Shown here in pieces: positions 1 to 27,233 of a stretch of 64,000 nt of DNA. The DNA comes from an uncultured Clostridia bacterium (GTDB taxonomy: Bacteria; Bacillota; Clostridia; TANB77; CAG-465), in assembly GCA_947630145.1 (NCBI GenBank), contig CANRGL010000001.1, forward strand, positions 17,289-81,288, read 5' to 3'. The position numbers were made by a program, and so were the translations under genes. How positions within the stretch are numbered: the first letter of the stretch is position 1; each line of letters begins with the position of its first letter. The notes under the pieces were generated by a model. It had not been told where the DNA came from and searched no databases. It worked only from the letters and a program-made list of their open reading frames with translations.

Positions 1-980
1 ACCCATTGGTCAACGAGATGCTGATATGGACAAACAATAATAACAGCTAATTTTCCACTTAGGTCTTTATATAATTGTGTTATAGCACCTAAACCTGTAT
101 ATGTTTTTCCAGTTCCTGTTGCCATATCAAATATTCCACGATAATTTTTTTCTTTCCAATTAGCTATCGCATTTTTTTGATAATTATGCAATAATACATC
201 TGCAGGTATTTCAGGACAATTAGTAACTGATTTTAATTTATTAATTTTCTCAGATTGAATTGACTGCTTTATTTTACTTGTAAATTCTTTTTCATCAATA
301 TTCCAATCTACGCATTCTTTTTTATAAGATAATATTCTATCTTTTGCAACTTTTGGAAAATCATATGTTACTGCACTTGTATCTTCATTATTCCATAATT
401 TATCAAATGCTTTTTCTTTTATCATTACTCTATCATTATCTTCCCATGATGTAAAAACATCCACTATTTCATAATTACTTATAAAAGCATTTTCTGTTTC
501 ATTCATAGAACCAGAAAAAGCAATTATATTATTTTCATTATCATACATTAAGCCAAGTTTTTCATGATATAAGCCTAATTTTTCATCTTTTAGTGAAAAA
601 GCAATTTTAATATCCAATTTTTCCTCAGCAATTAATGTTGCTAATAAGTTAAGTCTTTCTTCTTCAAAATAATTTTGAGGCTCTGTTATATATTGTAATA
701 ATGCTCTTTCAATAATGTTTTCTCTAACTTCATATCCTTTATTAATTGCCTCTATATCTTCTTCTGATAAATTTGGAGATACTATTAATTGAATTTTACC
801 TTTATTGTTCACTAATTTACTTATTCCATAAGAGATTTCTAACAAAGAAGATGATGAAAAAAAGCCAACACTTCTTTTATATAAAACTGATTCTTTTAAC
901 AAAGGAATATAAAATTCATTAACAATATCATCTCGTGGAGTTCTATATTCTTTTTTTAAATTAATATCTAATAGACTCAT
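1..980 (-). CDS. PLD-like nuclease domain + SF2 (DEAD/DEAH-type) helicase, N-terminal part; gene continues beyond window start
   Basis: The minus-strand reading frame starts with ATG at 980 (MSLLDINLKKEY...). It has an HxK...D...GSxN PLD-like motif (HEKLGLMYDNENNIIAFSGSMN). A Walker A motif (MATGTGKTYTG) lies near 1. It is not in the ORF track because it is truncated by the window edge. Confidence 0.6.
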   Translation of the reverse strand, partial: MSLLDINLKKEYRTPRDDIVNEFYIPLLKESVLYKRSVGFFSSSSLLEISYGISKLVNNKGKIQLIVSPNLSEEDIEAINKGYEVRENIIERALLQYITEPQNYFEEERLNLLATLIAEEKLDIKIAFSLKDEKLGLYHEKLGLMYDNENNIIAFSGSMNETENAFISNYEIVDVFTSWEDNDRVMIKEKAFDKLWNNEDTSAVTYDFPKVAKDRILSYKKECVDWNIDEKEFTSKIKQSIQSEKINKLKSVTNCPEIPADVLLHNYQKNAIANWKEKNYRGIFDMATGTGKTYTGLGAITQLYKDLSGKLAVIIVCPYQHLVDQW

Positions 981-1005: not shown

Positions 1006-2142
1006 TTATAAACTATTTAATGCATTAATTAAAGTATCAATATCATCCTTATTATTAAAATAATTTAACCCAACTCTTACTGTTCCACCATACTCAAGAG
1101 AACCTATAAATTCATGTATAAGAGGTGCACAATGAAACCCTGTCCTTACACATATATCAAATTCCTCATCTAATATTTTACCAACATCTTCAGAAGTATA
1201 CTTATCTACGCTAAAAGAAACAACTCCAAAAATTTTAGATAAATCATCTGGGGCATAAACATTAACTCCTTTTATAGACGACAACTGTTCTATTAAATAC
1301 ATTGTTAAGTTGCTTTCATGTTCAAATACTTTTACTTGATTTAGCCAGTCAATACTAACATTTAAACTAGATATAGCTACAATATTTGGGCTTCCAGCTT
1401 CATATCCTTCTGGGAAACTACACGGCATATTTGGATTCATGGTGTCTGAACCTGTTCCACCAAATATATTAGGTTTTATTATATCATCCTTTAATTTTAT
1501 ATACCCAGCTACTCCAAAAGAAGCATATAATGATTTATGACCTGCAAAAACAATATAATTTATATTACTATAATCGTTTATTTTTACAATACCATATCCT
1601 TGAGATGCATCTAATATGTTTATAGAATTATAGGTCTTTCCCAATTCAAATACCTCATTATAAGGAAGTAAATATCCTGTCACATTACTTACTTGTGAAA
1701 TAAAAATTGCAGCTGGATTATTTAAAATAAATAAATCTTTTGTTTTTTCGATATCTAATTTCCAAGTTTTATTATTAAATGGAAGTACCTTAATTGTAAT
1801 TTGTATTCTCTTTTTTAGTTCTTCTAATGGTCTTATTATAGAGTTATGTTCAAAAGGACTTACATAGACACAATCTCCTTTTTTTAAATTTATTCCAAAA
1901 ATAATATCATTTAAAGAACTGGTAGCAGAACTTGTAAAAACAACATTACCCTTATTTATATTGTTTAATTCTAAAATCTTCTTTCTAACATTTTCTTTTA
2001 TTATAGAAGCTTCTCGAGCAGGCTTATAACTTCCTCTTCCAGTGTTGAAAGCATTTCTATTTGCTCTATCTAATTCTTTATATACAATTTCTGGTTTTGG
2101 ATATGTAGTCGCTGCATTATCTAAATAAATCATATTGTACAC
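1006..2142 (-). CDS. class V aminotransferase / cysteine desulfurase (SspA/DndA/IscS-like)
   Basis: 378 aa. PLP-lysine motif HKSLYASFGVAGY and DASQ motif, fold V architecture. Lies 1 bp downstream of the big ATPase gene. Confidence 0.75.
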   Translation of the reverse strand: MYNMIYLDNAATTYPKPEIVYKELDRANRNAFNTGRGSYKPAREASIIKENVRKKILELNNINKGNVVFTSSATSSLNDIIFGINLKKGDCVYVSPFEHNSIIRPLEELKKRIQITIKVLPFNNKTWKLDIEKTKDLFILNNPAAIFISQVSNVTGYLLPYNEVFELGKTYNSINILDASQGYGIVKINDYSNINYIVFAGHKSLYASFGVAGYIKLKDDIIKPNIFGGTGSDTMNPNMPCSFPEGYEAGSPNIVAISSLNVSIDWLNQVKVFEHESNLTMYLIEQLSSIKGVNVYAPDDLSKIFGVVSFSVDKYTSEDVGKILDEEFDICVRTGFHCAPLIHEFIGSLEYGGTVRVGLNYFNNKDDIDTLINALNSL

Positions 2143-2143
2143 C

Positions 2144-5100
2144 TCACATATATTTTTTTATTATATTAACTAAAACACTTATCTTTTCTTTTTCTGTTAA
2201 AGAATCTCCGTATTCATTTATTACCTCTTCGATATTATTTCTCATAGTGTTTCCAATTGCTGAGATTTCATCATTTGAAATAATATATTTCTCTATTTTT
2301 TCACTACCATTAACTAGCAACAATTTATTACTTTCCTCTTTACAGTTACTTTTGTCATTTTTAACATTTTTTATATTTCCAATCATTTCTTTTAAATTTT
2401 CATTAAAACTTGTATAGTCACTTGGCTGCCAATCTTCTATATAAAATCCTGTTAAAATTTTTGCAATTTTCTCAATAACATCGTATTCGTCATGAGATGT
2501 TAAATTTCTAACATAATCTATAAATTCTTTTGTTCTAAATTCATAAATTACATACGAATTGTCTAATTCATTATCTTCATAAAATTCTTTTAATAAAGAT
2601 GTTAAACTTCCTTTAAAGCTTTTATTAAGAATTTCTTTTGTCTTAATAACCAACTTTTCTGAATATGTTGAAATAAAATTATCAAAGATTTTTTTCATAT
2701 TTTTAATTTCTTCTACTATCTTTAGATAATTAGTTGTATTAAATATATCACATAAAATTTTATACACAAATTCATTATTATTTATATCTGGCTTTAACAA
2801 TTCATTTTTTACATAGATATATTCTTCTTTTATTCCAAGATTATTAGTTTCTAAAGAATATTCTCTTAATATTCTTGGTAATGCTAAAACCCATCTTCTC
2901 ATATTATCTATTAGCTTTTTTAAATTTATTCTTTGAGTATCTAAATTAGGTACATCAAATATGTACATTAAATTTGACAAATATTTAATTTTATCTGCAG
3001 TTCCTTTTTCTGTTAATATAAAATATTTTTCTGGATTTTCATTTATTTTTATTAAATTAGTAGCATCTAAGTCTATTTCTTTATTCATGAAATAAATAAC
3101 AATTATATCTGAATAATTATATAAGGCCATTGAAATTAAAATAGGAATAATTCCTTTTCTAACAGCATATGGTTTACTTTGTAATTTTTTATATATTTTA
3201 TCAAATCCAATTTTATTGTTTTCACTTTCAGAAATAAATTTATTTATTAATTTAATAGTTTCACTTATAGATGGATTATTCTTTTTTTCAACAATAGCTT
3301 TATATATTGTTGCTTCAGCACTAGTTTTACTTTTTATTAAACTTTCATCATTATTTAATATTGTTTCTATTACTATATCTCTTGCTTTCTTTATAGGAGC
3401 AGACAGATCTCTTTTATTTATCATTTCATTATTGATAATAGGAGTTTTATCAAAAATTTTCATACATATATTTGATAAAAAAGCACTTATATTACTAACC
3501 TTTTTAAATGTCTCATTTTTATATAAATATTCTTGTATATTATCGTTTGAAAAGTACAATTTAACTTGTTCATTTATTGCCTCAATATTTTCCTTTTTTA
3601 TTAATTCTAATTCATTACCAATTTCATCTTTATTATTTGAATTTAAAATAAGATATTCTACTGCCCTATATTCCCTTAATAAAGAAATTATTGTTTTTGG
3701 AAAAATTGTTTTTGGTATTTTTAATACTACTTGTTCATTATTTTTTTTAGAGAAGTAATCTCTAATTTCTTGTATATTTCTTGACTCTCTTATTAAGTTT
3801 ATTACAATTCCATCACAATATTTTTTTTCAAATAATAAATCAAATTTACTTAAAGAAATAAGTTCTCTTTCATTCATAAATATATTGGAGAAAAATCTCG
3901 TAATTTTGAATTCTTCATTATATCTTCTTGGCAAAGAATAAATAGGATTAATAATCTCATTTAAAGTTCCTATTATATCTATGTCATAAAATTCAGACTC
4001 ACTTAATCTTTTTATTTCTTTTGATATTTCTCTATTATATATAGTTGAAAAATCTATTTCATTTGTAATTTTTTTTCGTTTTACTATGCTTTTTTCTATT
4101 AAATTTTCAATAGTTGTTTCATATTGTTCTTGAGATAAATTTAAAGATTCTTTTATTGTTTTATCATCTGGAATTAAATTTTCTAAATCATTTATCATAT
4201 ATATAATAGCTATTGATTTTATAATATTTTCTTCATTCTCACTTCTACACTTACTAATTGCATTTTCAGACTTAACCCATATCTCTTTTACATGTTGTTC
4301 GTTCTCTTTTTTTAACAGAGGTTTAAAATAATCATATATTTTATTTATATTAAATAAATCACCTGTGTTTTTTTCATTTTCTATAAAGCTTTTTAAACTA
4401 TTTGCATCATCATCAGTTAAAAAAGTAAATAATGTTCTTTCGTTCTGTGCAATTTTTTCAGATAGTTCAATAAGTGAATATGTAGTTATTGGATTAAGTG
4501 GAAAACATCCTTTAAATAGTATTTCTTCTATATTTTCGACATTTTTAAATATATTATTTTCTTTTAAATTATCATAAAAATTTACATTTTTATCATAGTA
4601 ATTATTATAATATTTTTCAAATCCTTCTTTTTTCTGTATTGCATAAGAAACTATTTCATAATTTTGTTCTAAACCTCTATTAAAGTATATTTCTTTAAAT
4701 CTGCCTTCAACAGTCTTGAATGCATTAGCTCTATCTTCATCTAAATTATTTGCGTATTGATTCATAGTCTTATGAGTTATGCAACTTAACAAAATTTGTT
4801 CATTATTTCCAGTTCTATTAGCTAATTCTGCAAAATCTTGCAATAATTTTAAATCTCTCATCATATGAGAATTATCCAAATATTCAAGAAATTTACTAAA
4901 TTCATCAAATACAATAAATATTCCTTTGTATCCTTTTTTTCCTAATTCGTAAGCCATATCTTTATAAGTTTTTATAATATCTGAATTAACTAGTGGATTA
5001 AACTCCTGGCCATGCAAAATACAACTATACACATTTTTAAAAATTTCGTAGTGCCTCTCCGAATAATTTTTTAATCCTTGTTTTAATTCTTTTAAATTAC

Positions 5101-5653
5101 AATCATACTCTTTCAAACATTTTTTTATTTCATCAATTGCATCCTTATAATTTTCTTCCCATTTTTCTATTACCTTTATAGCCACATCAAAATATGTATT
5201 TATAATTACATCTGATAATTTTTCTCTTTCAAGTGCTTCAGATAATGCTAACAAAAAAGCTTGATTTAAATCTCCATAATTACTATTTATTATTACTGGC
5301 ATTATTTTTTGTTTTTCTTTTCTTATTTTGCTAATCATTTCATATAATTCATTATCAATTTTTTTTATTTTTAAAATAAAATCATTTATATATGAAATAT
5401 CTTCTTTTTCATAGTCATCTAATAAAGTAATTAAAACAAGTAATAAATGTGACTTTCCTTTTCCGTAAGGTCCTATCAAAGTCGTAGCTCTATTTTTCCC
5501 ACTAATTATACTATTTAAATAACTTTTTAATAGCTCACATCCATCTTTTGTAGGTATATATTCTTTTAATTTTTCTATATTATTTATATCAAATTGTAAA
5601 TTTACTGAATATTGAAAATTTTCATTTACTCCTATTAAGTCTGTATATTTCAT
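2144..5653 (-). CDS. large P-loop NTPase, BrxC/PglY (DUF499)-like; candidate SspC-type ATPase
   Basis: 1169 aa with an N-terminal Walker A (LIGPYGKGKSHLL). Its size and P-loop context resemble BREX BrxC. It overlaps the upstream gene by 4 bp (ATGA), which suggests translational coupling. Confidence 0.5.
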   Translation of the reverse strand: MKYTDLIGVNENFQYSVNLQFDINNIEKLKEYIPTKDGCELLKSYLNSIISGKNRATTLIGPYGKGKSHLLLVLITLLDDYEKEDISYINDFILKIKKIDNELYEMISKIRKEKQKIMPVIINSNYGDLNQAFLLALSEALEREKLSDVIINTYFDVAIKVIEKWEENYKDAIDEIKKCLKEYDCNLKELKQGLKNYSERHYEIFKNVYSCILHGQEFNPLVNSDIIKTYKDMAYELGKKGYKGIFIVFDEFSKFLEYLDNSHMMRDLKLLQDFAELANRTGNNEQILLSCITHKTMNQYANNLDEDRANAFKTVEGRFKEIYFNRGLEQNYEIVSYAIQKKEGFEKYYNNYYDKNVNFYDNLKENNIFKNVENIEEILFKGCFPLNPITTYSLIELSEKIAQNERTLFTFLTDDDANSLKSFIENEKNTGDLFNINKIYDYFKPLLKKENEQHVKEIWVKSENAISKCRSENEENIIKSIAIIYMINDLENLIPDDKTIKESLNLSQEQYETTIENLIEKSIVKRKKITNEIDFSTIYNREISKEIKRLSESEFYDIDIIGTLNEIINPIYSLPRRYNEEFKITRFFSNIFMNERELISLSKFDLLFEKKYCDGIVINLIRESRNIQEIRDYFSKKNNEQVVLKIPKTIFPKTIISLLREYRAVEYLILNSNNKDEIGNELELIKKENIEAINEQVKLYFSNDNIQEYLYKNETFKKVSNISAFLSNICMKIFDKTPIINNEMINKRDLSAPIKKARDIVIETILNNDESLIKSKTSAEATIYKAIVEKKNNPSISETIKLINKFISESENNKIGFDKIYKKLQSKPYAVRKGIIPILISMALYNYSDIIVIYFMNKEIDLDATNLIKINENPEKYFILTEKGTADKIKYLSNLMYIFDVPNLDTQRINLKKLIDNMRRWVLALPRILREYSLETNNLGIKEEYIYVKNELLKPDINNNEFVYKILCDIFNTTNYLKIVEEIKNMKKIFDNFISTYSEKLVIKTKEILNKSFKGSLTSLLKEFYEDNELDNSYVIYEFRTKEFIDYVRNLTSHDEYDVIEKIAKILTGFYIEDWQPSDYTSFNENLKEMIGNIKNVKNDKSNCKEESNKLLLVNGSEKIEKYIISNDEISAIGNTMRNNIEEVINEYGDSLTEKEKISVLVNIIKKYM

Positions 5654-6507
5654 AGTATTCCTCCTTCGAAATATTCTTTCATAATATCCTCAAGAGATAA
5701 TTTCTTTTGAAAATAAACCATATTCAAGCCTGCAGTTCTGTTAATAATAATTAAATTATTTCTTTTCATTTCATCTAAATATTCGTTTATTAAATTTTTA
5801 TCCAAATTTAATAACTTAGCAGGACTATTATCTAATTTTAGTAGTTCATCTATGCTTATATAGTCCTTGTCATTTACAAGTTGCTCTATTAAGTAAAAAA
5901 CAATTAAATAGTTCAAATTTCTATAATCTGGTCTATTCCTTTCATAAGTATCTCTATCTATTTTCTTTATTAAATTTAAATCTGATAATGGTGATATAAA
6001 GTTATTTTCAGGATTATCAATTTTCTCATCAATAGCATATGTTTTTATTATCATGTTCACTTCATCTTGTAATATATTTTCATTATATTCTAGTTTTTCA
6101 TTTTTTAGATTTGTAACCAACTGCTCATAAATATCTCTTTTTGAAAATGACTTTCTTAAACATTTATTAAAAAACATATTATATATATAAGCATCATCTA
6201 AATTTAGCATCATATTAACATGTACTAGCCACCATGAAAATATATCTTCTAAATATGGATCATAATTCCCTATTAAATTTCCAAATTCTGATAGTTTTAT
6301 TTCTCTGTTTTCTTCTTTAATTAAGCAAGTAGCACTCATCCAATATTTTAACGATTTAACCATATTGTTTCCAATTCCCAATATGTCTGTTGCTTCTGCA
6401 GAAGAAAAAACTTTATTATTATTTTTTACATTTCTTATTCCTTTAGCCAGCCATCCTTCTCTTATTGAAAAGCTTTCATGTCTTTTCAGTTTCAATTTTA
6501 TATCCAT
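5650..6507 (-). CDS. hypothetical protein, possible SspB-like (DUF4007-like) component
   Basis: 285 aa with an N-terminal HESFSIREGWLAKG motif. It sits between the PAPS-reductase-like gene and the ATPase gene with 5 bp and -4 bp spacing. Confidence 0.3.
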   Translation of the reverse strand: MDIKLKLKRHESFSIREGWLAKGIRNVKNNNKVFSSAEATDILGIGNNMVKSLKYWMSATCLIKEENREIKLSEFGNLIGNYDPYLEDIFSWWLVHVNMMLNLDDAYIYNMFFNKCLRKSFSKRDIYEQLVTNLKNEKLEYNENILQDEVNMIIKTYAIDEKIDNPENNFISPLSDLNLIKKIDRDTYERNRPDYRNLNYLIVFYLIEQLVNDKDYISIDELLKLDNSPAKLLNLDKNLINEYLDEMKRNNLIIINRTAGLNMVYFQKKLSLEDIMKEYFEGGIL

Positions 6508-6512: not shown

Positions 6513-8264
6513 TTACCCCTTACCTTGTTTTGTTCTTAAAACTTTTTTCATATAACATCCACCACTAAAGTGTTTAACGCATTCTAGACAACTTACACAT
6601 TTATTTTCATCTATTTTATATAAAATATTAAAATTATCTCCGACTTGCTTATCTAAATGCTTTATTGTAATTGCATTAAATTTACAAACACTTTCACATG
6701 CCATACATGCTATACACGTTTGAAATTTTGTAACTTGGTTTTTTATTAACATTTCTGTATTCTTACTATTATTAAATATTTTTGTTTCTTTTAATACTGA
6801 TATTTTTAACAAGTTTTGACCAAATTTTCCCCTAAGTTTCAATATAGGTTCTTTTGTTTTCTTATCCAAAACATATACCTCTCCTAGTCTTTTATTTCCA
6901 ATGCTAAAATCAATTATTCCAAAAGGTTTAAATAATTCATATAAGTTACTATCAATAGTTTTATTTAGCTCGAAATTATATGTATTTTCTTCCAAAACAC
7001 ATGGCTTAAAGCTTAAAATAGCATTAGAACTATATTTTAAGCCATTTCCTCCTTGTCTAGCTTTCCAACCACCAGAATTAATATATTCTTTTGGATCAGG
7101 TTTTCCAACTTGAGTTGCAAAATCTAATAAAACATTATGAAATTTATCATATTGTTCTTTCATATATATATTTGATAAATATTCTGACCAAGAAGAATTA
7201 TTTGGGCAACACCAACATCCAACTCTTGAAAATCCTTTTCTATATGCACTGTTGAAAGGTATTTTTTTTGTTAATATATATAACCATACATCAAAATCTA
7301 ACCAATCTATAATTGGTGCAATAGTCTGTTGTTTTGTAATTTTTGTGCCTACACTTTCTCTTTCATATTTACTTCTTGCTAATGATTCATTCCTTCTTAA
7401 TCCTTGAAATGTTAAAATTTTTAATTTATCTTTAAATGTAGATTCAATTTTTCTAGTAATTGCACCTGTTTTAAATATTGTACAACACCATCTCATAACT
7501 CTACTAGGAGGTCCTATAACTTTGCACAATTCATTAAAATTTTGTTCCTTATTCTTAGCTATCAATAATGGAGTTGCAGGGTGAGATTTTTTAAATTCAT
7601 TTATATATTCTTTTGTTTCAGGATATTCTAGTGTAGTATCTCCATATATATGTATTATTTTTTCAGTATTAAGAGCATTTATAACTAAATCACTTGTAAC
7701 AGTTGAATCTTTTCCACCAGAAAAAGATACAAACATTGTGTCAATAGTATATTGATTTGTAATTTTTTTTATATAATCATGTGCCTCCGTAACTATAGCA
7801 TTATATCTTATTTTATTAGCTTCAATAAATTTCAAAATATATTGTTGATTAAAAAAATTATCTTCATATACTCTGTTTTTTTCTTTATTTTCTATTATCA
7901 TGTTTCTAATTTCATTTGCATCTTTATTTTCGATTATGTCTTTAATAACAAATCTGTGTTTCTTTCCATCAATAAAGTAGTTATTACCTGATGTATTCCA
8001 TATTGATTTTTCAGCATATTTAAAAGGTTCTCCCTCTATTACTTCTATCAATAATCTTTCTTCAGGAAAAACAGGTCTAATATCTGTCCCTATATATACA
8101 CCATCACCATTACATATAGAACATTTTTTTTCAAAAATAGGAATATTACAATTTTTACAATAATATATTTCTGATTTATCAACATATGTTCTTCCATTGC
8201 AAACAGGACATGTACTTGTTTCGCACATTAAATTATCACAATTATTACATACATATCTAATCAT
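6513..8264 (-). CDS. PAPS reductase-family PP-loop ATP pyrophosphatase (SspD/DndC-like) with N-terminal Zn-ribbons and C-terminal 2x[4Fe-4S] ferredoxin domain
   Basis: PP-loop SFSGGKDS. Cys clusters CWCCP and CxxC x4 at the N-terminus. C-terminal CIACMACESVC...CVSCLECVKH. The ORF extends to 8327 but AGGAGG + ATG (MIRYV) at 8264 is the likely start. Confidence 0.7.
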   Translation of the reverse strand: MIRYVCNNCDNLMCETSTCPVCNGRTYVDKSEIYYCKNCNIPIFEKKCSICNGDGVYIGTDIRPVFPEERLLIEVIEGEPFKYAEKSIWNTSGNNYFIDGKKHRFVIKDIIENKDANEIRNMIIENKEKNRVYEDNFFNQQYILKFIEANKIRYNAIVTEAHDYIKKITNQYTIDTMFVSFSGGKDSTVTSDLVINALNTEKIIHIYGDTTLEYPETKEYINEFKKSHPATPLLIAKNKEQNFNELCKVIGPPSRVMRWCCTIFKTGAITRKIESTFKDKLKILTFQGLRRNESLARSKYERESVGTKITKQQTIAPIIDWLDFDVWLYILTKKIPFNSAYRKGFSRVGCWCCPNNSSWSEYLSNIYMKEQYDKFHNVLLDFATQVGKPDPKEYINSGGWKARQGGNGLKYSSNAILSFKPCVLEENTYNFELNKTIDSNLYELFKPFGIIDFSIGNKRLGEVYVLDKKTKEPILKLRGKFGQNLLKISVLKETKIFNNSKNTEMLIKNQVTKFQTCIACMACESVCKFNAITIKHLDKQVGDNFNILYKIDENKCVSCLECVKHFSGGCYMKKVLRTKQGKG

Positions 8265-8385
8265 TTTATCTCCTCCTATTTTATCTAAAATCAAAAAAAT
8301 TATATCATATTTTTTTTGGAGAAACAATTAATAAATAAAAATTTTCTCCAGTTTTTAAAAAATTTATAGACTAGTCTAAATTAGC

Positions 8386-11160
8386 CTAGTCTATGTATTT
8401 TAAAATATCCCACTGATTAATTTCATCCTCATATTTTTCTCTACTTTCATAAATGCAATCTGTACTTGAATCTAAATAAAATTTTTTTCTATTTATAAAC
8501 TGTCTAATATAAAATTCTTCAACATTAATATTATATTTTTCTTCTATTTCATTTTTTATCTCTTTTATATATTTTTTATTTTTATTAACAAAACTATTTA
8601 TAAACTTCTCTCTTGTAGCAGACTCTTCAGTTTTAATAAATATAGTATTATTTTTCATTCTGAATCTTTTTACTTTCGGAATAATCATAATCAAGTTTTC
8701 ATAAAAACAATCTGGAAAATTATTTTTTAAAATTTTATTTTTAAAATCAGTATTTAATGTATATAAATTAAAATATTCATTTTCAGGAATAACCTTTTCA
8801 ATTTCCTCAATAAAAAGATTTATATCTTCCATAAAAATGCCCATGTCATTAAGTTTTTTTATTGTAATATATTTTTCATCTGATATTTTAAATAATTTCT
8901 TATCATAAATAAATTTATACAAATAACTAAAAAATGTTGAGCCTATCTTTTTCATTTCTTCAGGTATTTCGTAATAATCGTTAGAAATAATTATATCTTT
9001 AAGATAGCTCTCTAAATTTACTATGTTGTCTTTTATAATATAATTTCCCCTTAATTTATATCCTAATTTACTCAAATTTAATGAATTTAAAAGTCTAAAA
9101 TCATTTACATCGAATAAATCTGTTAACATTTTTTTCATTGTAGCTATAGAATATATATCTTCTTTTAGTTTTTCTTTCATAACCTCAAATTGTTTATTAT
9201 CAAATAACTGTACATTACATATAAGCATACTTAAATTTATATAATGGCTAAAGTTATTAACTACATATGATTTGAATGTATTTAACTTATGACCATAATT
9301 GTTATACATATATTTAACAAAATCATCAATACTAATAGGAGAAAGTTCTTGAATTTTCTCATCAACAAACTCTAGTTTATTATTACAATTTATAAATATA
9401 TCTGGCATTCTTGAATAAACTATACCTTCATCAAATTTTCCTAACACCTTTTTACATAAATTATGAAGTTCGTATTCGTTTCTTATATCTAATTTTTTCA
9501 TTAATAAAGGATTATCTTTATAAAATAATTCTGCTGAATATATTCCTGGCTCAATATCAAACATTTCTTTAAGTTCAGCTATGTCATCTTCTTCTATTTC
9601 ATTACAATTATAATATCTAAAACTTTTTCCTATTGTATCTAATATATAGTTTGTCCTTGTTAGTCTCGAATCTATATTTCTAAAGTCTTCTGCTGTTAGA
9701 AAATCTAAATTAAGTTTATATTCAATAACTATTTGATTATAATTTATCATTAATTCATTATAATCTACTCTTCTGTCTTCTTTTTTTAAATAAGCAATAA
9801 TAATAGGAATCGTATCTGCAACAATATTTTCTTCATTATATCTTATAATATTGTACTCTTTTCTTAAAATTTCTATCTGCTCACTTGTTAGCCTATTATC
9901 TTCTAAAAGCTCTGATGGTTTTAACTCACCATGTTTACCTTTCTCTCGCAAATAATAATATACATAATTTTCTAAATTAAATAATTTGCAAAACAATTCT
10001 TCTTTAAAATCATATTTTTCAATATAATCTAAATATTTTTCTTCTTCAATATGGTTAATTTTTTTCAATTCACTTGCTATTATTTGCCTTATTCTTTCTC
10101 TAGTTAGGTTATACTCATTACCTATTTGCACTAATGTATAACCTGATAATTTTTTCATTACAATATCATAATGATTATTATTTTTTTTAATTTTATCTAA
10201 TTCTTCTATTAATTTTGGATAAGTACTTCTATATTTACCATTCTCATAAATAATTTCATTGTTTTCTAGTAATTCATTAAAGAATTTATCAAATTTTTCT
10301 ATATTATACCTTTTTGCTTCGATAATATTTTTAATTTCTTCTTTTAATGCGACTCCTGTTTTTAGCTCTTTTCTCATTATAGTTAATATAATTTTCTTAT
10401 CTAAATTCTTCTTTATGTCTAAATCAATTATCATTTGATTGTATGCATTTAATAATCTTTCTTTCTTTGCAGCAGTTAGGTGATATTTATCTCCAATTGT
10501 TTCATCTATATCTTCAAATCTAATATTTTTTTCAACAAGTAGCTTTTCTATTAAACACCTAGAAAGTCCATATCTTTCTAATTCATATACAGAATATGGC
10601 ACATTATAATTATCATTATTTTTACTTAATTTTTTCATTTCAACTAATTCAGATATAATCTTATTTAACTTTTCTGTTGTATATCCTTTTTTTTCTATTA
10701 TTTGTACAAGTTCTTCTATCGAAAAAGTATTATGTCTAAATGAATTATTTATTATTTCCAAAGTTTTTTGAGTAGTCAATCCAAGATTTATGTTTTTATT
10801 TTCAAAAAAAGCATTTAAAGATGTAATTATTTTAGCATATGTAGAATCTCCTATATTATATTTTTCTTTTATAGTTTCATTTATGTCTTCAATTTCTATT
10901 TTTTTGCTAAATAATTTATCTATTATATTTTTTGATAATCCGTACTTAATAAGTTCATATATAGAATATTTTTTCTTATCTTCACTTATCTTCATTAAAC
11001 TAGTTTTTATTTTTAACTTTTTTTCGCTATGTGAACCTAAATACTTATCTACACAATCTATATTACTATATATATCTTCTAGATTTATTCCTTCATTATC
11101 TAAATTCATTATAGTATTTAATGGTATACCGTATTCACAAAGCAAATAAATCGATTTCAT
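8386..11160 (-). CDS. large hypothetical DNA-binding protein: three alphaCTD-like helix-hairpin-helix repeats + sigma-70 region-4-like HTH
   Basis: 924 aa. A roughly 55-aa repeat occurs three times (YELxxYGLSxxxIxKLxxxxIxxEDIxETIxxKY). Residues about 335-365 (LSGYTLVQIGNEYNLTRERIRQI) match a sigma-70 r4.2 pattern. Confidence 0.4.
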   Translation of the reverse strand: MKSIYLLCEYGIPLNTIMNLDNEGINLEDIYSNIDCVDKYLGSHSEKKLKIKTSLMKISEDKKKYSIYELIKYGLSKNIIDKLFSKKIEIEDINETIKEKYNIGDSTYAKIITSLNAFFENKNINLGLTTQKTLEIINNSFRHNTFSIEELVQIIEKKGYTTEKLNKIISELVEMKKLSKNNDNYNVPYSVYELERYGLSRCLIEKLLVEKNIRFEDIDETIGDKYHLTAAKKERLLNAYNQMIIDLDIKKNLDKKIILTIMRKELKTGVALKEEIKNIIEAKRYNIEKFDKFFNELLENNEIIYENGKYRSTYPKLIEELDKIKKNNNHYDIVMKKLSGYTLVQIGNEYNLTRERIRQIIASELKKINHIEEEKYLDYIEKYDFKEELFCKLFNLENYVYYYLREKGKHGELKPSELLEDNRLTSEQIEILRKEYNIIRYNEENIVADTIPIIIAYLKKEDRRVDYNELMINYNQIVIEYKLNLDFLTAEDFRNIDSRLTRTNYILDTIGKSFRYYNCNEIEEDDIAELKEMFDIEPGIYSAELFYKDNPLLMKKLDIRNEYELHNLCKKVLGKFDEGIVYSRMPDIFINCNNKLEFVDEKIQELSPISIDDFVKYMYNNYGHKLNTFKSYVVNNFSHYINLSMLICNVQLFDNKQFEVMKEKLKEDIYSIATMKKMLTDLFDVNDFRLLNSLNLSKLGYKLRGNYIIKDNIVNLESYLKDIIISNDYYEIPEEMKKIGSTFFSYLYKFIYDKKLFKISDEKYITIKKLNDMGIFMEDINLFIEEIEKVIPENEYFNLYTLNTDFKNKILKNNFPDCFYENLIMIIPKVKRFRMKNNTIFIKTEESATREKFINSFVNKNKKYIKEIKNEIEEKYNINVEEFYIRQFINRKKFYLDSSTDCIYESREKYEDEINQWDILKYID

Positions 11161-12383: not shown

Positions 12384-13883
12384 CTATTCCTTATGTCCTC
12401 CTATTTGAGAATTTCTTTCTATTGTTGTTCCATCTTTTTCTAAATTCATTCCTTTAAGAATAGAATTTTTACCAAATTTCTTTTTTATATCTATAATAGT
12501 ATGTTGCAAATTGTTTTCTTCTTTTAGTTTTTCTTTCATTTCAATTTTTTCTCTGTTTTGTTTATCATAATCTATAAAAAAACAAATTTGTTCATTTGGC
12601 TTTTTCTTTTCTGCCTCATATTCATTAACTACATTATTTGCTACAACATTTATTCTCCTTACAAGCAAATTTTTATTTATAATTCTTTCGTATAATTTTT
12701 CTATTGCCTCCATAATTATTTTTGTTGATGATGAATAATCTTCTAAATTTATTGTACCATGAGCATGTTTAGGAATTTCTCTACCATATCTATCTGTTGT
12801 AATTTCTCCATAATAAGATTCTTTTATCTTAGTATCTATTAAATTATCTATATCATAACCTATCGTCAAAACAAGTTGATTTGTTACTAAATGCTTTTCT
12901 ACCAAATCTAATACCAATAAATCTGTCATCTCTTTAACAATAAGTTTTGTTTGTTTATAATTATATGGGCAATGCAAAACTTGTCCTGAACTTATGCTAT
13001 TTGTGGACGGTTTAAAAGATTTTACTTCTTTCATAGTACAAGGCTCATATCCCCACGCATGATCTATTAAAAATTCTGCGTTTATTCCAAATAACTTATA
13101 TAATAATTCTTCATTATTTAAAGAACATCTAGCTATATCTCCCATAGTATATAAATGATGTTTTTCAAGTTTCTTTGCATATCCATTTCCCACTCTCCAA
13201 AAGTCTGTAATAGGTCTATGACTCCAAAGTAACTTCCTATAACTCATTTCATCCAATTCAGCAATCCTTACACCATTTTTATCTGCCACTTTATGTTTTG
13301 CCTCAATATCCATAGCAATTTTTGCTAAATACATATTAGTTCCTATTCCTGCTGTTGCTGTTATTCCAGTTAATTTATAAACATCATGTATCATTGTTGT
13401 TACCATTTCTTTTGGAGTCATTTTAGCATTTTTTAGATAATTAGTAATATCACAAAAGACCTCATCAATCGAATACGCATATATATCTTCACTAGCAACA
13501 TATTTCAAATATACATTATAAATTGTTGTACTATATTTCATATACAAAGACATTCTAGGTGGTGCAATAATATAGTCTAATTCTAAATTATTGTCTTGTT
13601 TTAATTCTCTATCATCATATGATTTTCCAGTAAATATATGATTTTTAGCTTTAAATCTTCTATTATTATTAACTTCCTTAACTCTTTGTATAACTTCAAA
13701 TAATCTAGCTCTACCTGATATTCCATAAGACTTTAATGAGGGAGTTACTGCTAAACATATTGTTTTTTCAGTTCTTGACTTATCTGCAACAACTAAATTT
13801 GTTCTTAACGGATCTAAATTTCTTTCCCTACATTCTACTGATGCGTAAAAACTTTTCAAATCGATACAACAAAAAACACTCAC
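12384..13883 (-). CDS. Y-family (UmuC/DinB/UvrX-like) translesion DNA polymerase
   Basis: IDLKSFYASVECRERNLDP N-terminal catalytic motif, about 500 aa. The ORF track extends to 13946 but AGGAGGG + GTG at 13883 is the likely start. Confidence 0.85.
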   Translation of the reverse strand: MSVFCCIDLKSFYASVECRERNLDPLRTNLVVADKSRTEKTICLAVTPSLKSYGISGRARLFEVIQRVKEVNNNRRFKAKNHIFTGKSYDDRELKQDNNLELDYIIAPPRMSLYMKYSTTIYNVYLKYVASEDIYAYSIDEVFCDITNYLKNAKMTPKEMVTTMIHDVYKLTGITATAGIGTNMYLAKIAMDIEAKHKVADKNGVRIAELDEMSYRKLLWSHRPITDFWRVGNGYAKKLEKHHLYTMGDIARCSLNNEELLYKLFGINAEFLIDHAWGYEPCTMKEVKSFKPSTNSISSGQVLHCPYNYKQTKLIVKEMTDLLVLDLVEKHLVTNQLVLTIGYDIDNLIDTKIKESYYGEITTDRYGREIPKHAHGTINLEDYSSSTKIIMEAIEKLYERIINKNLLVRRINVVANNVVNEYEAEKKKPNEQICFFIDYDKQNREKIEMKEKLKEENNLQHTIIDIKKKFGKNSILKGMNLEKDGTTIERNSQIGGHKE

Positions 13884-13938
13884 AAAATTCCCTCCTACTT
13901 TCTTAACAATACATATTATATAATAATATTTTTTATTT

Positions 13939-13950
13939 GTAAACATTTGT
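13939..13950. promoter_or_regulatory. Cheo/LexA box-like GAACAAATGTTT overlapping -35 of TTTACA-17-TATAAT promoter of the Y-family polymerase operon
   Basis: The minus-sense sequence GTGAACAAATGTTTACA-aataaaaaatattatta-TATAAT lies about 55 bp upstream of the GTG start. It matches the Gram-positive consensus GAAC-RNRY-GTTY. Confidence 0.5.
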
Positions 13951-14088
13951 TCACTATTTTACAAAAAAATATAATAGGGACATAACTGCCCCTATTTTAA
14001 TAATGTATGAAATAAACTTATAAAAAAGACTACTACAAATAATACACATCCCATTATAAATCCCATTTCTATCCCTCCTAACACTATA

Positions 14089-14316
14089 CTATCTTTTTGT
14101 GTCGAGAGTTCTAAATATGCTTTGATATTCATTTTGCAATTTACTTATACTTCCATCTTTAGAGCTATGACTCATAATATATTCTGATATTTCTCTTTCT
14201 ATATTTTTTAATTCCTCATCAGAATAATCTTTATTTTCTATATTTATTCCTGCATTTTTTACTAATTCAATCTCTTTATTAGTGCATTTATCTATTAAAT
14301 TCATATTACTTATCAT
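14089..14316 (-). CDS. hypothetical protein
   Basis: 75-aa ORF within the conjugation gene block. Confidence 0.3.
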   Translation of the reverse strand: MISNMNLIDKCTNKEIELVKNAGINIENKDYSDEELKNIEREISEYIMSHSSKDGSISKLQNEYQSIFRTLDTKR

Positions 14317-14373
14317 CCTTTCATTTTAAACCAGTATTATTATAACACATATTTTATTCTTATTCTATAATTT

Positions 14374-15483
14374 TTATTCGTATTTTGGACTGCCATAGCC
14401 CATAATCTGCCCATCATCAAAGGAATACACCCTTTCTGCACATTTATCATCTGTATTTCCCTCAATAGTGTATATAGTTCTATTTGTAATATCTGTTCGA
14501 GTAACAATACCAACATGATCTGATATTCCATCTTGATTATCGTTCCAATCGAAAAATATAATGTCCCCAATTATTGGATAATAACTTTCTCCTCTATCAT
14601 GCCATTCATTTTTTTCTTTAAACCAATTTATTCCATCAGAGCAAACAGAAAATTTTGGAATAATACCTTTTTCTATATACCCACATTCACTGGCACACCA
14701 ACTAACAAAACAAGCACACCATTCTACTCTAGAATCAAAGCCATACCAACTCCAAAACTTATCTCCACCCTCATTACCAATTTGAGATTTTGCAATTAGC
14801 ACAATTTCACTATTAGGTATTTGTGAAGAGTCATAATTATCATCTCCATCATTGTTAAAAATAGCAGCTACAAAACCTGCTATTAAAACAATAACCACAA
14901 TAATAACTACTGCTATCCAACCACCTGCTATAATTGCAGAAATAATAGCCTTTGTTGCTGCTATTATTGCCTTAACTGCAGTTATTGTTGCTTTTATAGT
15001 TGCTTTAATTCCTTGTGCAGTTATTTTAGCTATATGTTTTGTTAATTTTACTGCTTTTTGACTTGCCTTTATACTTTCTTTTGCAACTTTTTTCCCTGTT
15101 TTTGCAACATTTTCAGCAGTTTTTATACTTTTTTTTGTTAGTTCAGTGTTCTTTTTTAGATTATTTATTATTCTTTTTTCTTTTATTCTTGTTTTAAAAG
15201 TATTTATTTTTTTCTTTTCTTTTATAAAGTTATTTTGCGTTTCTTTTATAGATTTTTTTCCTAATTCATTTGTTTTTTCTAATCCTTTTCTAGATGTATA
15301 ACTTATACTATTCTGTATTTTTCTTCCTGCATATTCTTCACCTGAATTATTATCATCATCCATAGTAATTTCATTTATTCGTTCTTTTGTTGTTATCAAA
15401 TTGTTCTTTATTTTTTCAACTCCAACAATATTCTTATCTAATTTTCTTATTGTTTCTTTAGGTTTAATTTTTATTTCAGACAT
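14374..15483 (-). CDS. membrane-anchored CHAP-domain peptidoglycan hydrolase (conjugation-associated cell wall hydrolase)
   Basis: C-terminal CHAP Cys/His region (EWCACFVSWCAS...HVGIVT). Central TM segment and lysine-rich coiled region. Fits the PrgK/TcpG functional class. Confidence 0.7.
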   Translation of the reverse strand: MSEIKIKPKETIRKLDKNIVGVEKIKNNLITTKERINEITMDDDNNSGEEYAGRKIQNSISYTSRKGLEKTNELGKKSIKETQNNFIKEKKKINTFKTRIKEKRIINNLKKNTELTKKSIKTAENVAKTGKKVAKESIKASQKAVKLTKHIAKITAQGIKATIKATITAVKAIIAATKAIISAIIAGGWIAVVIIVVIVLIAGFVAAIFNNDGDDNYDSSQIPNSEIVLIAKSQIGNEGGDKFWSWYGFDSRVEWCACFVSWCASECGYIEKGIIPKFSVCSDGINWFKEKNEWHDRGESYYPIIGDIIFFDWNDNQDGISDHVGIVTRTDITNRTIYTIEGNTDDKCAERVYSFDDGQIMGYGSPKYE

Positions 15484-15556
15484 CTATTTATCACTCCCTT
15501 TCAATAATAAAAAAAGAAGTTGATTTTTCTCAACTTCCCTAATTTACTATAATATC

Positions 15557-16018
15557 TTATTTTGTTATATTAACAAGATAATCATAAAGTTTCTTAATAT
15601 CTGTCATATCTAACATTAAAGAAACCCCAATAACATCAATAGCACCATTATTATCTATTGGATATACTACTATTTCCATATTAGGCTCTTCGACCAATTT
15701 CTTATTTTCTAGACTTTCATAATATACTCCATATTCATCACCTTTAGGATAAAATCTTATCTTAAAAGTTTGTTCAATAGGAATAAAACATTTATAATCT
15801 TTCATATTTCCATCTAAAAAACTTTTTATATCTTCTCTTAATTCATCAACTTCATAACACATCAAATCATAACTACTATTTTCAAATTTTAATGTATAAT
15901 TACTAATTTTCCAATTAACATGAGCCCAACTATCATCTTCAACTTTTCTATATTTTTCATAACCATATATACACAGTTCAAGTTCGTCAAAACATAGTTT
16001 TACACTAACCTTATCCAT
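15557..16018 (-). CDS. hypothetical protein
   Basis: 153-aa ORF. Confidence 0.3.
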   Translation of the reverse strand: MDKVSVKLCFDELELCIYGYEKYRKVEDDSWAHVNWKISNYTLKFENSSYDLMCYEVDELREDIKSFLDGNMKDYKCFIPIEQTFKIRFYPKGDEYGVYYESLENKKLVEEPNMEIVVYPIDNNGAIDVIGVSLMLDMTDIKKLYDYLVNITK

Positions 16019-16046
16019 TTTTTCACTTCCTAATTATTTTACTTTT

Positions 16047-16469
16047 TTAATCCCAATTCATAATTTCTATATCTTCTATATTAAAATCTTTACCACATAT
16101 AGGACATTTACTTAAATTCTCTATAATATTCATTTTTTCATTACATTTAGAACATTTATATTCAGAAATGAAATCTTCATCATTTTTATCTAAAGCTATT
16201 AGTTTGAAGTAAAATTTATTTGTTATACTTTTACATTTTGGACATTGATATGTTTTATATCCATAATAATTTTCATCTAATATATATTTTTTTCCTTTTA
16301 ATATTTCGTTTAATTTTTCTCCATTTATTCCATCTTTATACCTTTTAATTAAATTAAATTTACTATCATATTTCATAAGTTCTGTCTTACTATCGAGCAT
16401 TCCTCTTCCTTCCATGAATTCAAATTCTTTTTTACATTTTTTACATACATATATCAAACCTTTTCCCAT
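16047..16469 (-). CDS. hypothetical zinc-ribbon protein
   Basis: 140 aa with several CxxC pairs (CKKCKK, CPKCKS, CSKCNE, CPICGK). Confidence 0.3.
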   Translation of the reverse strand: MGKGLIYVCKKCKKEFEFMEGRGMLDSKTELMKYDSKFNLIKRYKDGINGEKLNEILKGKKYILDENYYGYKTYQCPKCKSITNKFYFKLIALDKNDEDFISEYKCSKCNEKMNIIENLSKCPICGKDFNIEDIEIMNWD

Positions 16470-16571
16470 TTACATTCTCCTATTTTTATATTAAATTTAA
16501 TTATCTAGAAAAAATTTTTCTAAAAAATATTATAACACAATATTATTGCCGTTTCAAATATACTCTATTTT

Positions 16572-17351
16572 CTATATCTTTTTCGCAATTACAACCATTC
16601 TTCCATTTTTTTGTGAATATTCACAAGTAGATAGTGTTATATATTTATCCTTATGTGTTCCTACAACTCCTGTATAATAAAACTCAGTTTCTCTACATCC
16701 ATTTACAAACTCAATATAATCTGTTGAATTTTCAAAATCAGTATAACAATAATACTTAAATCCTAAATCTGTATATACAGTAGTTTTAAATGAAATCATA
16801 ACTTCATATACATTTTCGATAGTTTTTCCATTTTCTATTGTATATAACTTTATATATTTATGATTAAGATAAAAATTATAATTTTTATATTTTTCTAGCT
16901 GAGAAAACATTGTATTATCGCTCATATTATGACCATATATTATTAAATTATCTGATTTTTTTAAATCACAATAAAAAGCTAAATATGGTGTACCATGATT
17001 AGAATAATTTTTATAAATATCCTTATGAAGATAATAATCACCATTTTGCATTACAGGATAATTTATATTTGTTCCATCTATTTTTATCCAAGCAACTACA
17101 TCATCATTTATAAGTTTTACATTTTCTAAATTATAGTTATTATCTTCTTCATTATTTATTTTATTTTCTTGTTTCAATAAATTTTCTTTCTCATTTTGCG
17201 TATCATTCTCATCTACTTTTATAACTTCCTGTAAATCGACAAATATATCATTTTCTTTTTTATTTTCTATTAACTCTTTAATTAAAAAATAGCTACTAAT
17301 AGCTAATATAACTATTAGTAGCATTATAACTATTTTACCTAACTTATTCAT
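16572..17351 (-). CDS. sortase, class B-like
   Basis: N-terminal TM segment. Active-site His motif IIYGHN. TLSTC catalytic Cys motif. 259 aa. Overlaps the VirB4 gene by 8 bp. Confidence 0.7.
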   Translation of the reverse strand: MNKLGKIVIMLLIVILAISSYFLIKELIENKKENDIFVDLQEVIKVDENDTQNEKENLLKQENKINNEEDNNYNLENVKLINDDVVAWIKIDGTNINYPVMQNGDYYLHKDIYKNYSNHGTPYLAFYCDLKKSDNLIIYGHNMSDNTMFSQLEKYKNYNFYLNHKYIKLYTIENGKTIENVYEVMISFKTTVYTDLGFKYYCYTDFENSTDYIEFVNGCRETEFYYTGVVGTHKDKYITLSTCEYSQKNGRMVVIAKKI

Positions 17352-19686: not shown

Positions 19687-20119
19687 TTCTTTCAGCCTCC
19701 CTATTTTTTTTACTACCTTTTTTTAATTTCTTATCTTTCTTTTCTTTTTTTATTTTCTTAGGTTTTAAAATTCCTTGTTTCATTCTTTTATCAATTACTT
19801 CTCTAAATTCTTCAGCATATATATTTTGTGCATCAAATATTAAATGCTTAGGCATCATAACTATATTTTTTAAAAATGCAATAACAAATTCTTCTGCATT
19901 CATTCCATTATATTTTATGAAACCCAAAGCTGCAAAAGGAGCAGCTCCCAAAATACATAGCCATGATAATGTTTCTATTCCAAAAAAAGGTTTTAGAGTA
20001 AAGTATAAAACAATGGCAACTCCACAAGCCAAGATAGAAAAAATGAACTGTCTTAAAGACAGTCCAAAGAAAATACTTTCGCTAAATTCTCTAATTTCTT
20101 TGTTAATTTTAACTTCCAT
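19670..20119 (-). CDS. VirB3/PrgI-like small membrane protein
   Basis: 149 aa with two TM helices near the N-terminus. Overlaps the VirB4 start by 17 bp, the typical VirB3-VirB4 arrangement. Confidence 0.45.
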   Translation of the reverse strand: MEVKINKEIREFSESIFFGLSLRQFIFSILACGVAIVLYFTLKPFFGIETLSWLCILGAAPFAALGFIKYNGMNAEEFVIAFLKNIVMMPKHLIFDAQNIYAEEFREVIDKRMKQGILKPKKIKKEKKDKKLKKGSKKNREAERNVENT

Positions 20120-20122
20120 TTT

Positions 20123-21352: not shown

Positions 21353-21396
21353 ATATATTCCTACCTTTCTATCAATTCATTATTATCTATATTTTT

Positions 21397-22233: not shown

Positions 22234-22298
22234 CTCATTTCATTTTAAAAATTAAAAGGCAGATATGCTTTAAATACCTGCCTCTTACATTTTTTACT

Positions 22299-22628
22299 TT
22301 AGCCACCTGTGATTAGATTTAAAATCTCTTTTGCAAATGTTATAACTATTCCACCTGCAAGAGTCATAATTCCATTGGCTCGCTGTGTTGGATCATGAGA
22401 CTTTAAACTCATACCCACTTGTACCACTCCAAAGCCTAAAATAATCATTCCTACAGCTCTTATTAAGCCAAATATAAAATTTGACAAATTATTTACAACT
22501 GCTATTGGATCATCGGTTGCAAAAACAGTAGATACTTCTACAATACTTATAACAATTATATAAGCTATAATAAATAATTTCATAAATAAATTTTTCTTTT
22601 TATTAGTTTTATTTTGTTCTTTCATCAT
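22299..22628 (-). CDS. small two-TM membrane protein (possible T4SS pilin-like/TcpE-like)
   Basis: 109 aa with an N-terminal TM segment and a second hydrophobic hairpin. Confidence 0.3.
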   Translation of the reverse strand: MMKEQNKTNKKKNLFMKLFIIAYIIVISIVEVSTVFATDDPIAVVNNLSNFIFGLIRAVGMIILGFGVVQVGMSLKSHDPTQRANGIMTLAGGIVITFAKEILNLITGG

Positions 22629-22645
22629 TTTATCTCCTCTCTTTT

Positions 22646-24620: not shown

Positions 24621-24632
24621 TTTATATACCTC

Positions 24633-25376: not shown

Positions 25377-25381
25377 AATAA

Positions 25382-26773: not shown

Positions 26774-26790
26774 TTTACATTTCTCCTTTC

Positions 26791-27102: not shown

Positions 27103-27129
27103 CTTTACCTCCTTTGCAAAATAAACACT

Positions 27130-27155: not shown

Positions 27156-27233
27156 AATAGAATTTGGAAAGAACGATTTTCGGTCTCCCAAATTCAGTGC
27201 TTGCTAATACAAGAAATCAATATAATAACATTT

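Follow-up and report, generated by a model that had tools for sequence, protein, structure and literature searches.

A probable long, BrxP-type SspD with zinc-ribbon and ferredoxin-type motifs heads an Ssp-type operon in an uncultured Clostridia bacterium

Introduction

The chemistry by which sulfur is inserted into DNA to form phosphorothioate (PT) linkages is unsettled; among the points at issue are the adenylated intermediate, what the DndC cluster does, and whether S-adenosylmethionine is used, as has been claimed. The present work is concerned with a gene on the minus strand (6513..8264) of a 64,000 nucleotide (nt) stretch of DNA from an uncultured Clostridia bacterium (GenBank assembly GCA_947630145.1, contig CANRGL010000001.1), the whole of which is referred to below as the window. 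The product of this gene, 583 amino acids (aa) long, is very probably a long, BrxP-type form of SspD, the PP-loop enzyme of the Ssp-type PT module SspD-SspB-SspC-SspA. Residue numbers follow the 583-aa protein unless stated otherwise.

The closest described protein is BrxP of BREX type 4 (e.g. in Bacteroides salyersiae; PDLC02510), which gave the best profile match to the window SspD. Two recent papers describe BrxP from different angles. In the first of these BrxP is shown to be in effect a fusion of SspD with SspB (PMC12914056, Nat Commun 2026), and brxP and brxC, together with the cysteine desulfurase SufS, are given as the smallest set of BREX genes with which Bacteroides makes PT; brxC alone gives no PT, BrxP was shown genetically to be essential, and PT dinucleotides were obtained when BrxP was reconstituted in Bacteroides thetaiotaomicron. 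Gut isolates with ssp are described in the same source as carrying C-ps-C. The second paper (PMC12839542, NAR January 2026, gkag035) reports an architecture of 3′-phosphoadenosine 5′-phosphosulfate (PAPS) reductase, alpha/beta and Fer4 regions for BrxP and "a subset of SspD", the type-4 BREX PAPS reductase being devoid of the DndC cysteine dyad and carrying a Mog1p/PsbP-like alpha/beta region which is followed by a cysteine-rich region of the Fer4 type.

DndC is likewise a PP-loop ATP pyrophosphatase of the PAPS-reductase fold, which holds one [4Fe-4S] centre and obtains its sulfur from a cysteine desulfurase (PMC10853773). It differs from BrxP-type enzymes in its characteristic cysteine dyad, which they lack (PMC12839542), and from the window SspD in its partners, which are DndD and DndE rather than SspB and SspC, the DndD-like PbeC at the window locus belonging to a Pbe module. 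Canonical SspD, of the type found in Vibrio cyclitrophicus FF75 (PDLC02782), is a short protein of 268-299 aa with its PP-loop at residue ~12, one RWC cysteine, one CxxC and a C-terminal CxxC tail.

Assignment to the BrxP-type SspD family

The PADLOC BrxP model matched the window protein at 3.6e-83, residues 78-602 (in the 604-aa numbering of the open reading frame list) aligning with model positions 23-517 of 779. The match to the canonical SspD model of PADLOC was 2.6e-11 and covered model positions 4-128 of 277 only, without end-to-end likeness, while the DndC model gave 1.6e-12. The part of the BrxP model left unmatched can be ascribed to a DUF4007 fusion, since BrxP is matched over its whole length by a 797-aa representative (P0146) whose last 260 residues match SspB as well. 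In BrxP this fused C-terminal DUF4007 occupies model positions ~517-779, whereas the window SspD ends at residue 583 and DUF4007 constitutes a separate protein, SspB, encoded downstream. Otherwise the two are alike, sharing an N-terminal module (N-module), the PAPS-reductase core, the alpha/beta domain and the cysteine-rich Fer4 region (PMC12839542). Their loci differ as well, BREX type 4 comprising brxC-pglZ-brxL and the window locus a BrxC-like SspC with a Pbe module downstream, and neither PglZ nor BrxL.

For comparison with short SspDs, classical Ssp loci were located in plasmid records by tblastn with SspC and the annotated regions were read. The PAPS-reductase genes thus recovered encode 299 aa in Vibrio scophthalmi pVS127 (with sspA, sspB, sspC, sspD and a DUF262 sspE), 280 aa in Acinetobacter baumannii and 268 aa in Trichormus variabilis, and all three products match the PADLOC SspD model end to end, at 1e-119 to 1e-137. 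A match on an Escherichia coli IncC plasmid was dropped as an unrelated PAPS-reductase-like reading frame with no Ssp context. Canonical and window SspD share a homologous PP-loop core and the same role and position with SspB (DUF4007), SspC and SspA; the former is devoid of zinc ribbons, N-module, alpha/beta domain and ferredoxin domain or motifs. In agreement with this, profile-profile alignment (hhalign) of the long family with short SspDs, at 99.2% probability, was confined to the core (residues 177-375), where C260, C350 and C353 are conserved.

An earlier note on this DNA, made from the sequence alone, had described the protein as a DndC/SspD-like PP-loop enzyme, and this is borne out by the Pfam match to PF01507 (1.2e-34) and by the motifs SFSGGKDS and CWCCP. 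The note had further contrasted it with canonical DndC and SspD as enzymes with a single cluster and no ferredoxin extension, a contrast which is correct because the short SspDs of 268-299 aa lack such extensions and DndC has one [4Fe-4S] centre (PMC10853773). Its suggestion that the three-part layout is unusual did not hold, given the BrxP match, the abundance of relatives reported below and the fact that the layout is published (PMC12839542). The domain-architecture comparison thus had a divided outcome: the layout recurs in the characterised BrxP and is absent from Vibrio-type SspD and DndC. The long SspD of the window is an ordinary member of the BrxP-type class already described, it stands in a standard PT operon, and nothing at this locus departs from what is already described.

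The same core could be read as that of a housekeeping, ferredoxin-dependent reductase of adenosine 5′-phosphosulfate (APS) or PAPS, serving assimilatory sulfate reduction and lying beside defence genes by chance. Assimilatory APS reductase (Pseudomonas aeruginosa CysH, PDB 2GOY) does share with the window SspD the fold and, in aligned positions, the CC...CxxC pattern of [4Fe-4S] ligands. In the alignment RWCC falls on ECC and GCWCCP on GCEPCT, and the cysteines of these two 2GOY segments are the CC...CxxC ligands of its cluster. These correspondences, the Pfam PAPS_reduct match and the capacity of a fused ferredoxin to donate electrons are what such a reading would draw on. However, every NCBIfam match of the window protein lies under its cut-off, and the CysH and APS-reductase models reach only 52-57 bits against cut-offs of 154-235 (NF002537, 57.2 against 154; TIGR00434, 52.9 against 165; TIGR02055, 51.7 against 235); the DndC model TIGR03183 likewise stays at 42.9 against 290.4. 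The gene moreover belongs to an operon with SspB, SspC and SspA that is conserved across about 60 genomes, and its carrier is a conjugative element; this setting in defence itself distinguishes it from 2GOY. As the catalytic ECG[LI]H tail of APS reductase is also absent from the translated sequence, an assimilatory CysH role was rejected, and we regard a housekeeping reductase as hardly credible.

A PAPS-reductase core followed by a C-terminal ferredoxin is also found in archaeal "hypothetical proteins" of the PRK13795 type (NF010366-NF010369), which matched the BrxP-type SspD of the window at 4e-58 to 8e-48 in alignments extending to the profile ends. They differ from it in that all matches are below the curated cut-offs (best 197 against 456 bits) and their N-terminal ~200 residues do not match the N-module. 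A literature search on the archaeal MJ0066 PAPS-reductase/ferredoxin protein found nothing.

An Ssp-type operon with a Pbe module

The gene for SspD heads an operon SspD-SspB-SspC-SspA in which all genes are contiguous and on the same strand, and a PbeA/B/C/D-like module lies downstream. SspB (5650..6507, minus strand; 285 aa), 6 nt downstream of SspD, was recognised by Pfam DUF4007 at 2.1e-76 and by PADLOC SspB at 2.1e-52. Its stop overlaps the start of SspC (2144..5653, minus strand), a BrxC/PglY-like ATPase of 1169 aa with a PADLOC SspC match of 6.6e-104, and this is followed by a cysteine desulfurase of the SspA type (1006..2142, minus strand; 375-378 aa; Aminotran_5 6.2e-64, TIGR01977 3.2e-106, PADLOC SspA 5.8e-28). 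The order D-B-C-A differs from the B-C-D order of canonical Ssp loci.

At the left edge of the window, 1..980 (minus strand) represents the first ~326 codons of PbeA, an HKD/PLD nuclease fused to an SF2 helicase. This was established from an identical ENA contig (L001, 17285..21752), which continues past that edge with PbeA (7.1e-247), PbeC (4.9e-106), a 52-aa PbeB-like gene and a dnd_assoc_4 gene. Pbe modules have been reported with DndCDEA and with methylases. A description of Ssp paired with Pbe was not found in the literature searched, and Jian et al. 2021 make no mention of ssp-pbe coupling.

The earlier note had allowed that this might not be a standard phosphorothioation enzyme. That doubt is answered by the operon order, which is of the Ssp type and conserved in related loci, and by the requirement for BrxP in PT formation (PMC12914056). 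It is improbable, therefore, though less so than a housekeeping reductase, that the sulfur modification made by the long enzyme is something other than the classical Rp phosphorothioate, or that its substrate is a different one, for example RNA or a nucleotide. The distant relationship of the family to canonical SspD and DndC would leave room for such an activity, as would the PAPS and Fer4 layout of the archaeal PRK13795-type proteins and the circumstance that stand-alone long SspDs are known from sequence alone. Against it, BrxP makes PT dinucleotides with the same PAPS, alpha/beta and Fer4 layout (PMC12914056), SspB, SspC and SspA are all present and syntenic, and the module downstream is the PT-associated Pbe. 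For the BrxP-type SspD of the window, ATP pyrophosphatase activity and PT formation are thus predicted, the PP-loop motif SFSGGKDS being visible in the translation.

Domain organisation and cysteine motifs

From its N- to its C-terminus the window SspD consists of two predicted zinc ribbons, the conserved N-module and the PAPS-reductase core, after which come an alpha/beta domain and a ferredoxin-type domain with eight cysteines, predicted to hold two clusters. An AlphaFold2 (AF2) model had a predicted local distance difference test (pLDDT) value of 74.6, with good confidence at residues ~30-400. In it two beta-hairpin ribbons are seen, then a beta unit with a helical bundle, a Rossmann-like PP-loop core and an alpha/beta unit. 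A search of the PDB gave no entry matching this protein beyond generic domains.

All 24 cysteines are invariant across 50 homologues at 67-100% identity. Across 75 diverse cluster representatives at 24-50% identity, C260, C350, C353, C517, C520, C523, C527, C556 and C570 are invariant and C261, C559 and C562 are conserved in at least 90%. The cysteine motifs are therefore under selection and not due to chance.

The four N-terminal CxxC pairs (C6/C9, C19/C22, C36/C39, C48/C51) are present as the earlier note had described them and are among the residues invariant in the 50 homologues. They fall into zinc ribbon 1 (C6, C9, C19, C22, with C14 in addition; 8190..8255, minus strand), seen as beta-hairpins in the AF2 model, and zinc ribbon 2 (C36, C39, C48, C51; 8103..8168, minus strand), the ribbon common to most family members, for which 75 representatives give the consensus WCxxCxxPLLxxxCxxCG. 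The alignment of most cluster representatives begins at query residue ~30. Zinc-ribbon Pfam matches to the N-terminal 174 residues were below threshold only, and local Foldseek matches of zinc ribbon 2 to the zinc ribbons of Nop10, Spt4 and aIF2-gamma had a root mean square deviation of 0.7-0.9 A and E>1. The N-terminal CxxC sets are accordingly referred to as predicted zinc ribbons, zinc binding being suggested by the cysteine pattern and the model. No mention of N-terminal zinc ribbons was found in the accessible text of PMC12839542 or PMC12914056.

The N-module (residues 57-175; 7740..8096, minus strand) comprises a D-x-RPVFPEERLL motif, a small beta unit and a helical bundle, and was delimited from conservation and the AF2 model. 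Its residues P64, F66 and E69 are conserved in at least 90% of the 75 representatives, with pLDDT about 90, and the alignment to the BrxP model begins within it. The N-terminal module modelled by itself reached a pLDDT of 81, and when the N-terminal 178 residues were compared with the PDB by Foldseek, nothing significant was retrieved (best E 0.4).

The PP-loop ATP pyrophosphatase/PAPS-reductase domain (residues 177-355; 7200..7736, minus strand), to which the PF01507 match refers, contains SFSGGKDS at residues 180-187 (7704..7727), RWCC at 258-261 and GCWCCP at 349-354 (CWCCP at 350-354). The core cluster cysteines C260/C261 (7482..7487, minus strand) and C350-x-x-C353 (7206..7217, minus strand) are conserved and align with those of APS reductase, and a Foldseek search with the core matched APS/PAPS reductases, TtuA and LarE.

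C-terminal to the core lie a conserved GGWKARQGG loop (7047..7073, minus strand), in which W400 is invariant and R403 conserved in at least 90%, and C422 (6999..7001, minus strand), both 5′ of the alpha/beta domain (residues ~427-515; 6720..6986, minus strand), whose strands and helices were modelled by AF2 with pLDDT 72-86. The 2x[4Fe-4S] ferredoxin-type domain (residues 516-572; 6549..6719, minus strand) was delimited by Pfam and its eight conserved cysteines, the C-terminal piece scoring 33.2 bits with Fer4 (cut-off 21.1) and 32.4 bits with Fer4_7 (cut-off 27), and its sequence matches the NuoI/TYKY subunits of complex I at 3.6e-6. The earlier note had given both ferredoxin motifs as CxxCxxCxxxC; this is exact for the first, CIACMACESVC at residues 517-527 (6684..6716; C517, C520, C523, C527), but the second, CVSCLECVKHFSGGC at residues 556-570 (6555..6599; C556, C559, C562, C570), reads CxxCxxCx7C. 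By their spacing, the cysteine sets fit one core cluster site and two sites of the ferredoxin type, and cluster binding is predicted for each.

Distribution, synteny and hosts

An exhaustive HMMER scan over 1.84 billion cluster representatives (50%-identity clusters) recovered 3118 relatives at E<=1e-3, of which 399 reached E<=1e-30. Among the best 150 of these cluster relatives, full-length proteins were about 520-600 aa long, with BrxP fusions of about 770-800 aa in addition, and both ferredoxin motifs were present in nearly all that were full-length. N-terminal CxxC pairs in the same 150 numbered two (one ribbon) in most and four in the closest few, and there were usually none in the fusions; the ~770-800-aa BrxP representatives thus mostly differ in this respect from the window SspD with its four. 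When one genome per species was scanned, a relative was found encoded in at least 405 species genomes.

Synteny and motif counts were taken from the best 80 of these at least 405 genomes (loci L008-L087), the denominators being the loci with enough DNA visible. SspB adjoins the long SspD in 68/74 loci, SspC in 63/71 and SspA in 53/59, and PbeA or PbeC is found downstream of the operon in 33/57. On plasmid pTS1 of Treponema saccharophilum the order D-B-C-A-helicase-ATPase is that of the window. Every complete long SspD gene carries the two ferredoxin motifs and nearly all the D-x-RPVFPEERLL motif, while N-terminal CxxC pairs, counted in 79 loci, number four in 46, three (degenerate) in 16 and one or two in 17. 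As long SspDs score far better on the PADLOC BrxP model than on the canonical SspD model, stand-alone long SspD operons of the D-B-C-A type, with or without Pbe, may be under-called as Ssp systems by annotation.

The hosts of the best 80 loci include Clostridia, Erysipelotrichaceae, Lachnospiraceae, Treponema, Prevotella and Coriobacteriia, and also Mucispirillum, Methanobrevibacter, Anaerolineae and one Heimdallarchaeote. Nearly all of these hosts are strictly anaerobic (Clostridia of the gut and rumen, Treponema, Prevotella, Coriobacteriia, methanogens and Anaerolineae). The three short loci (L005-L007) come from Vibrio, Acinetobacter and cyanobacteria, and the comparison suggests that the two forms divide by oxygen tolerance, with long SspD in anaerobes.

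In a subgroup of the related loci (L079, L083, L084, L085 and L087) the canonical order SspB-SspC-SspD-SspA-PbeA-PbeC was observed, and the SspDs of these five carry only one zinc ribbon, RPVFPEE being replaced by CNPVF(K/L)QE. Their arrangement looks intermediate, linking the classical Ssp order with D-B-C-A.

A possible role for the ferredoxin domain

A mechanism for the long SspD can be proposed by analogy with DndC, SspD, BrxP, TdpC and TtuA. SspA would make a persulfide from cysteine, dock on SspD and pass the sulfur over, and a complex of SspD with SspA has been seen in pull-down experiments (PMC7188994). At its PP-loop SspD would use ATP for activation of the target DNA phosphate, the probable product being an adenylated intermediate, and such an intermediate on DNA has been reported for TdpC (An et al. 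2025, as cited in later work). The core [4Fe-4S] cluster, an APS-reductase-like site with three ligands shared with short SspD, would deliver the sulfur. SspB (DUF4007) and the ATPase SspC would bind, nick and select the DNA site, and the Pbe module would restrict unmodified DNA. The best mechanistic analogy may be the tRNA thiolase TtuA/Ncs6 (Foldseek E about 1e-5), in which adenylation is followed by sulfur transfer from the cluster; it is alike in its PP-loop, its flanking zinc fingers and a cysteine-ligated [4Fe-4S] carrying sulfur, and unlike in its substrate, a tRNA uridine, its want of a dicluster ferredoxin domain and its remote sequence similarity.

The most speculative step concerns the C-terminal 2x[4Fe-4S] domain, which might be a built-in electron wire to the catalytic cluster. 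Such a wire would pass on low-potential electrons, for instance to reduce the incoming persulfide to sulfide or to keep the cluster reduced, replacing a free ferredoxin or flavodoxin, and the zinc ribbons and N-module would form a docking surface for DNA or a partner. Points in favour of an electron relay are the NuoI-like sequence, the strictly conserved cysteines and the almost exclusively anaerobic hosts, a host range that fits an oxygen-labile, low-potential redox module. In its full form the proposal is that the tri-cluster class of long SspD and BrxP inserts sulfur by a reductant-dependent route not used by the short Vibrio-type SspD, the dicluster cleaving the SspA persulfide by way of the catalytic cluster, so that PT modification would be redox-coupled and shut off by oxygen, with the ribbons and N-module as a new docking unit. 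We put this forward tentatively, as a possibility that may well prove wrong.

Several points tell against an electron relay and the system built around it. Replacement of a phosphate oxygen by sulfur needs no net electrons once sulfide is given, and short SspD works without a ferredoxin domain, so that a relay is not required on either count. What the alpha/beta and Fer4 regions do is described as unclear in PMC12839542, and no biochemical or genetic study of a stand-alone long SspD was identified in the literature. In the AF2 model pLDDT is <50 at residues 402-426 and 516-583, the latter including the cofactor-dependent ferredoxin region. The functional coupling of Ssp and Pbe is likewise drawn from adjacency only, as modules of the Pbe type also occur without PT genes (PMC10853773).

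The absence of the domain from the functional short enzyme, the lack of net reduction in the chemistry and the published verdict on its role also speak for a serious rival, in which enzyme and operon are as described above but the dicluster is a structural scaffold, a DNA-binding or charge-sensing element, or an oxygen or redox sensor that switches modification off. Among iron-sulfur proteins, glycosylases and primases are examples of DNA-binding or DNA-charge-sensing elements of this kind, and the strict conservation of eight cysteines fits any cluster-dependent role. What argues for electron transfer instead is that the domain is of the classical low-potential 2x[4Fe-4S] type and closest to an electron-transfer subunit, NuoI/TYKY, that it is fused to an enzyme already holding a predicted cluster, and that the strongly anaerobic host range fits a redox function. 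A structural or sensing role is likewise a tentative reading that may well prove wrong. The long SspDs represent a very abundant PT class of gut anaerobes, and because they have three predicted iron-sulfur clusters, against one cysteine set in the model Vibrio enzyme, they constitute a natural test case for whether sulfur insertion needs electrons.

Translation start and 5′ leader

The earlier note had placed the gene at 6513-8327. A single open reading frame on the minus strand does span 6513..8327, but 8327 is merely the first TTG after a stop codon, and the start used by the open reading frame lister, from which the 604-aa numbering derives. An ATG at 8264 is preceded, 6 nt upstream, by a GGAGGAG Shine-Dalgarno sequence (8277..8271), and the 583 aa that it yields is the exact length of 83/88 of the closest homologues (>=74% identity), one database protein of 583 aa being 100% identical to the window SspD. 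Given this ribosome-binding site and the homologue lengths, it is nearly certain that translation begins with the ATG at 8264 and that the coding sequence is 6513..8264 (minus strand), with 583 codons followed by a stop.

The stretch between the TTG and the ATG (8264..8327, minus strand) resembles a 5′ leader and promoter of SspD. An extended -10 element, TGATATAAT, is visible at 8307..8299 by eye only; a promoter and terminator scan of 8150-8500 gave nothing above shuffled expectation, this element being missed by the consensus scan because its -35 match is weak. The host is an AT-rich gut member of the Clostridia; the GC content is 25.6%, and an Rfam search found no RNA family anywhere in the 64-kb window.

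The conjugative element and its flanks

Directly upstream of SspD, a 924-aa protein is encoded at 8386..11160 (minus strand), in which a helix-turn-helix of the Sigma70_r4 type (aa 338-368, 9.4e-6) is the only recognisable feature apart from a weak resemblance to the C-terminal part of MzaA. This protein was rejected as a conserved part of the system, being found in 1/80 related loci, and is probably cargo or a regulator specific to the element.

The SspD operon is itself cargo of an integrative conjugative element, genes of which were identified at 12384..55559. They encode a Y-family polymerase and a YolD-like protein, a CHAP hydrolase, a sortase, a VirB4-like ATPase, a T4 coupling protein, a MobA/VirD2 relaxase, a DUF3991-Toprim protein, a 2405-aa SNF2/LPD16 polyvalent protein and three large adhesins with SpaA and thioester (TED) domains. 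Beyond the element the window continues with chromosomal genes, recG at 57150..59225 and proS at 61937..63703.

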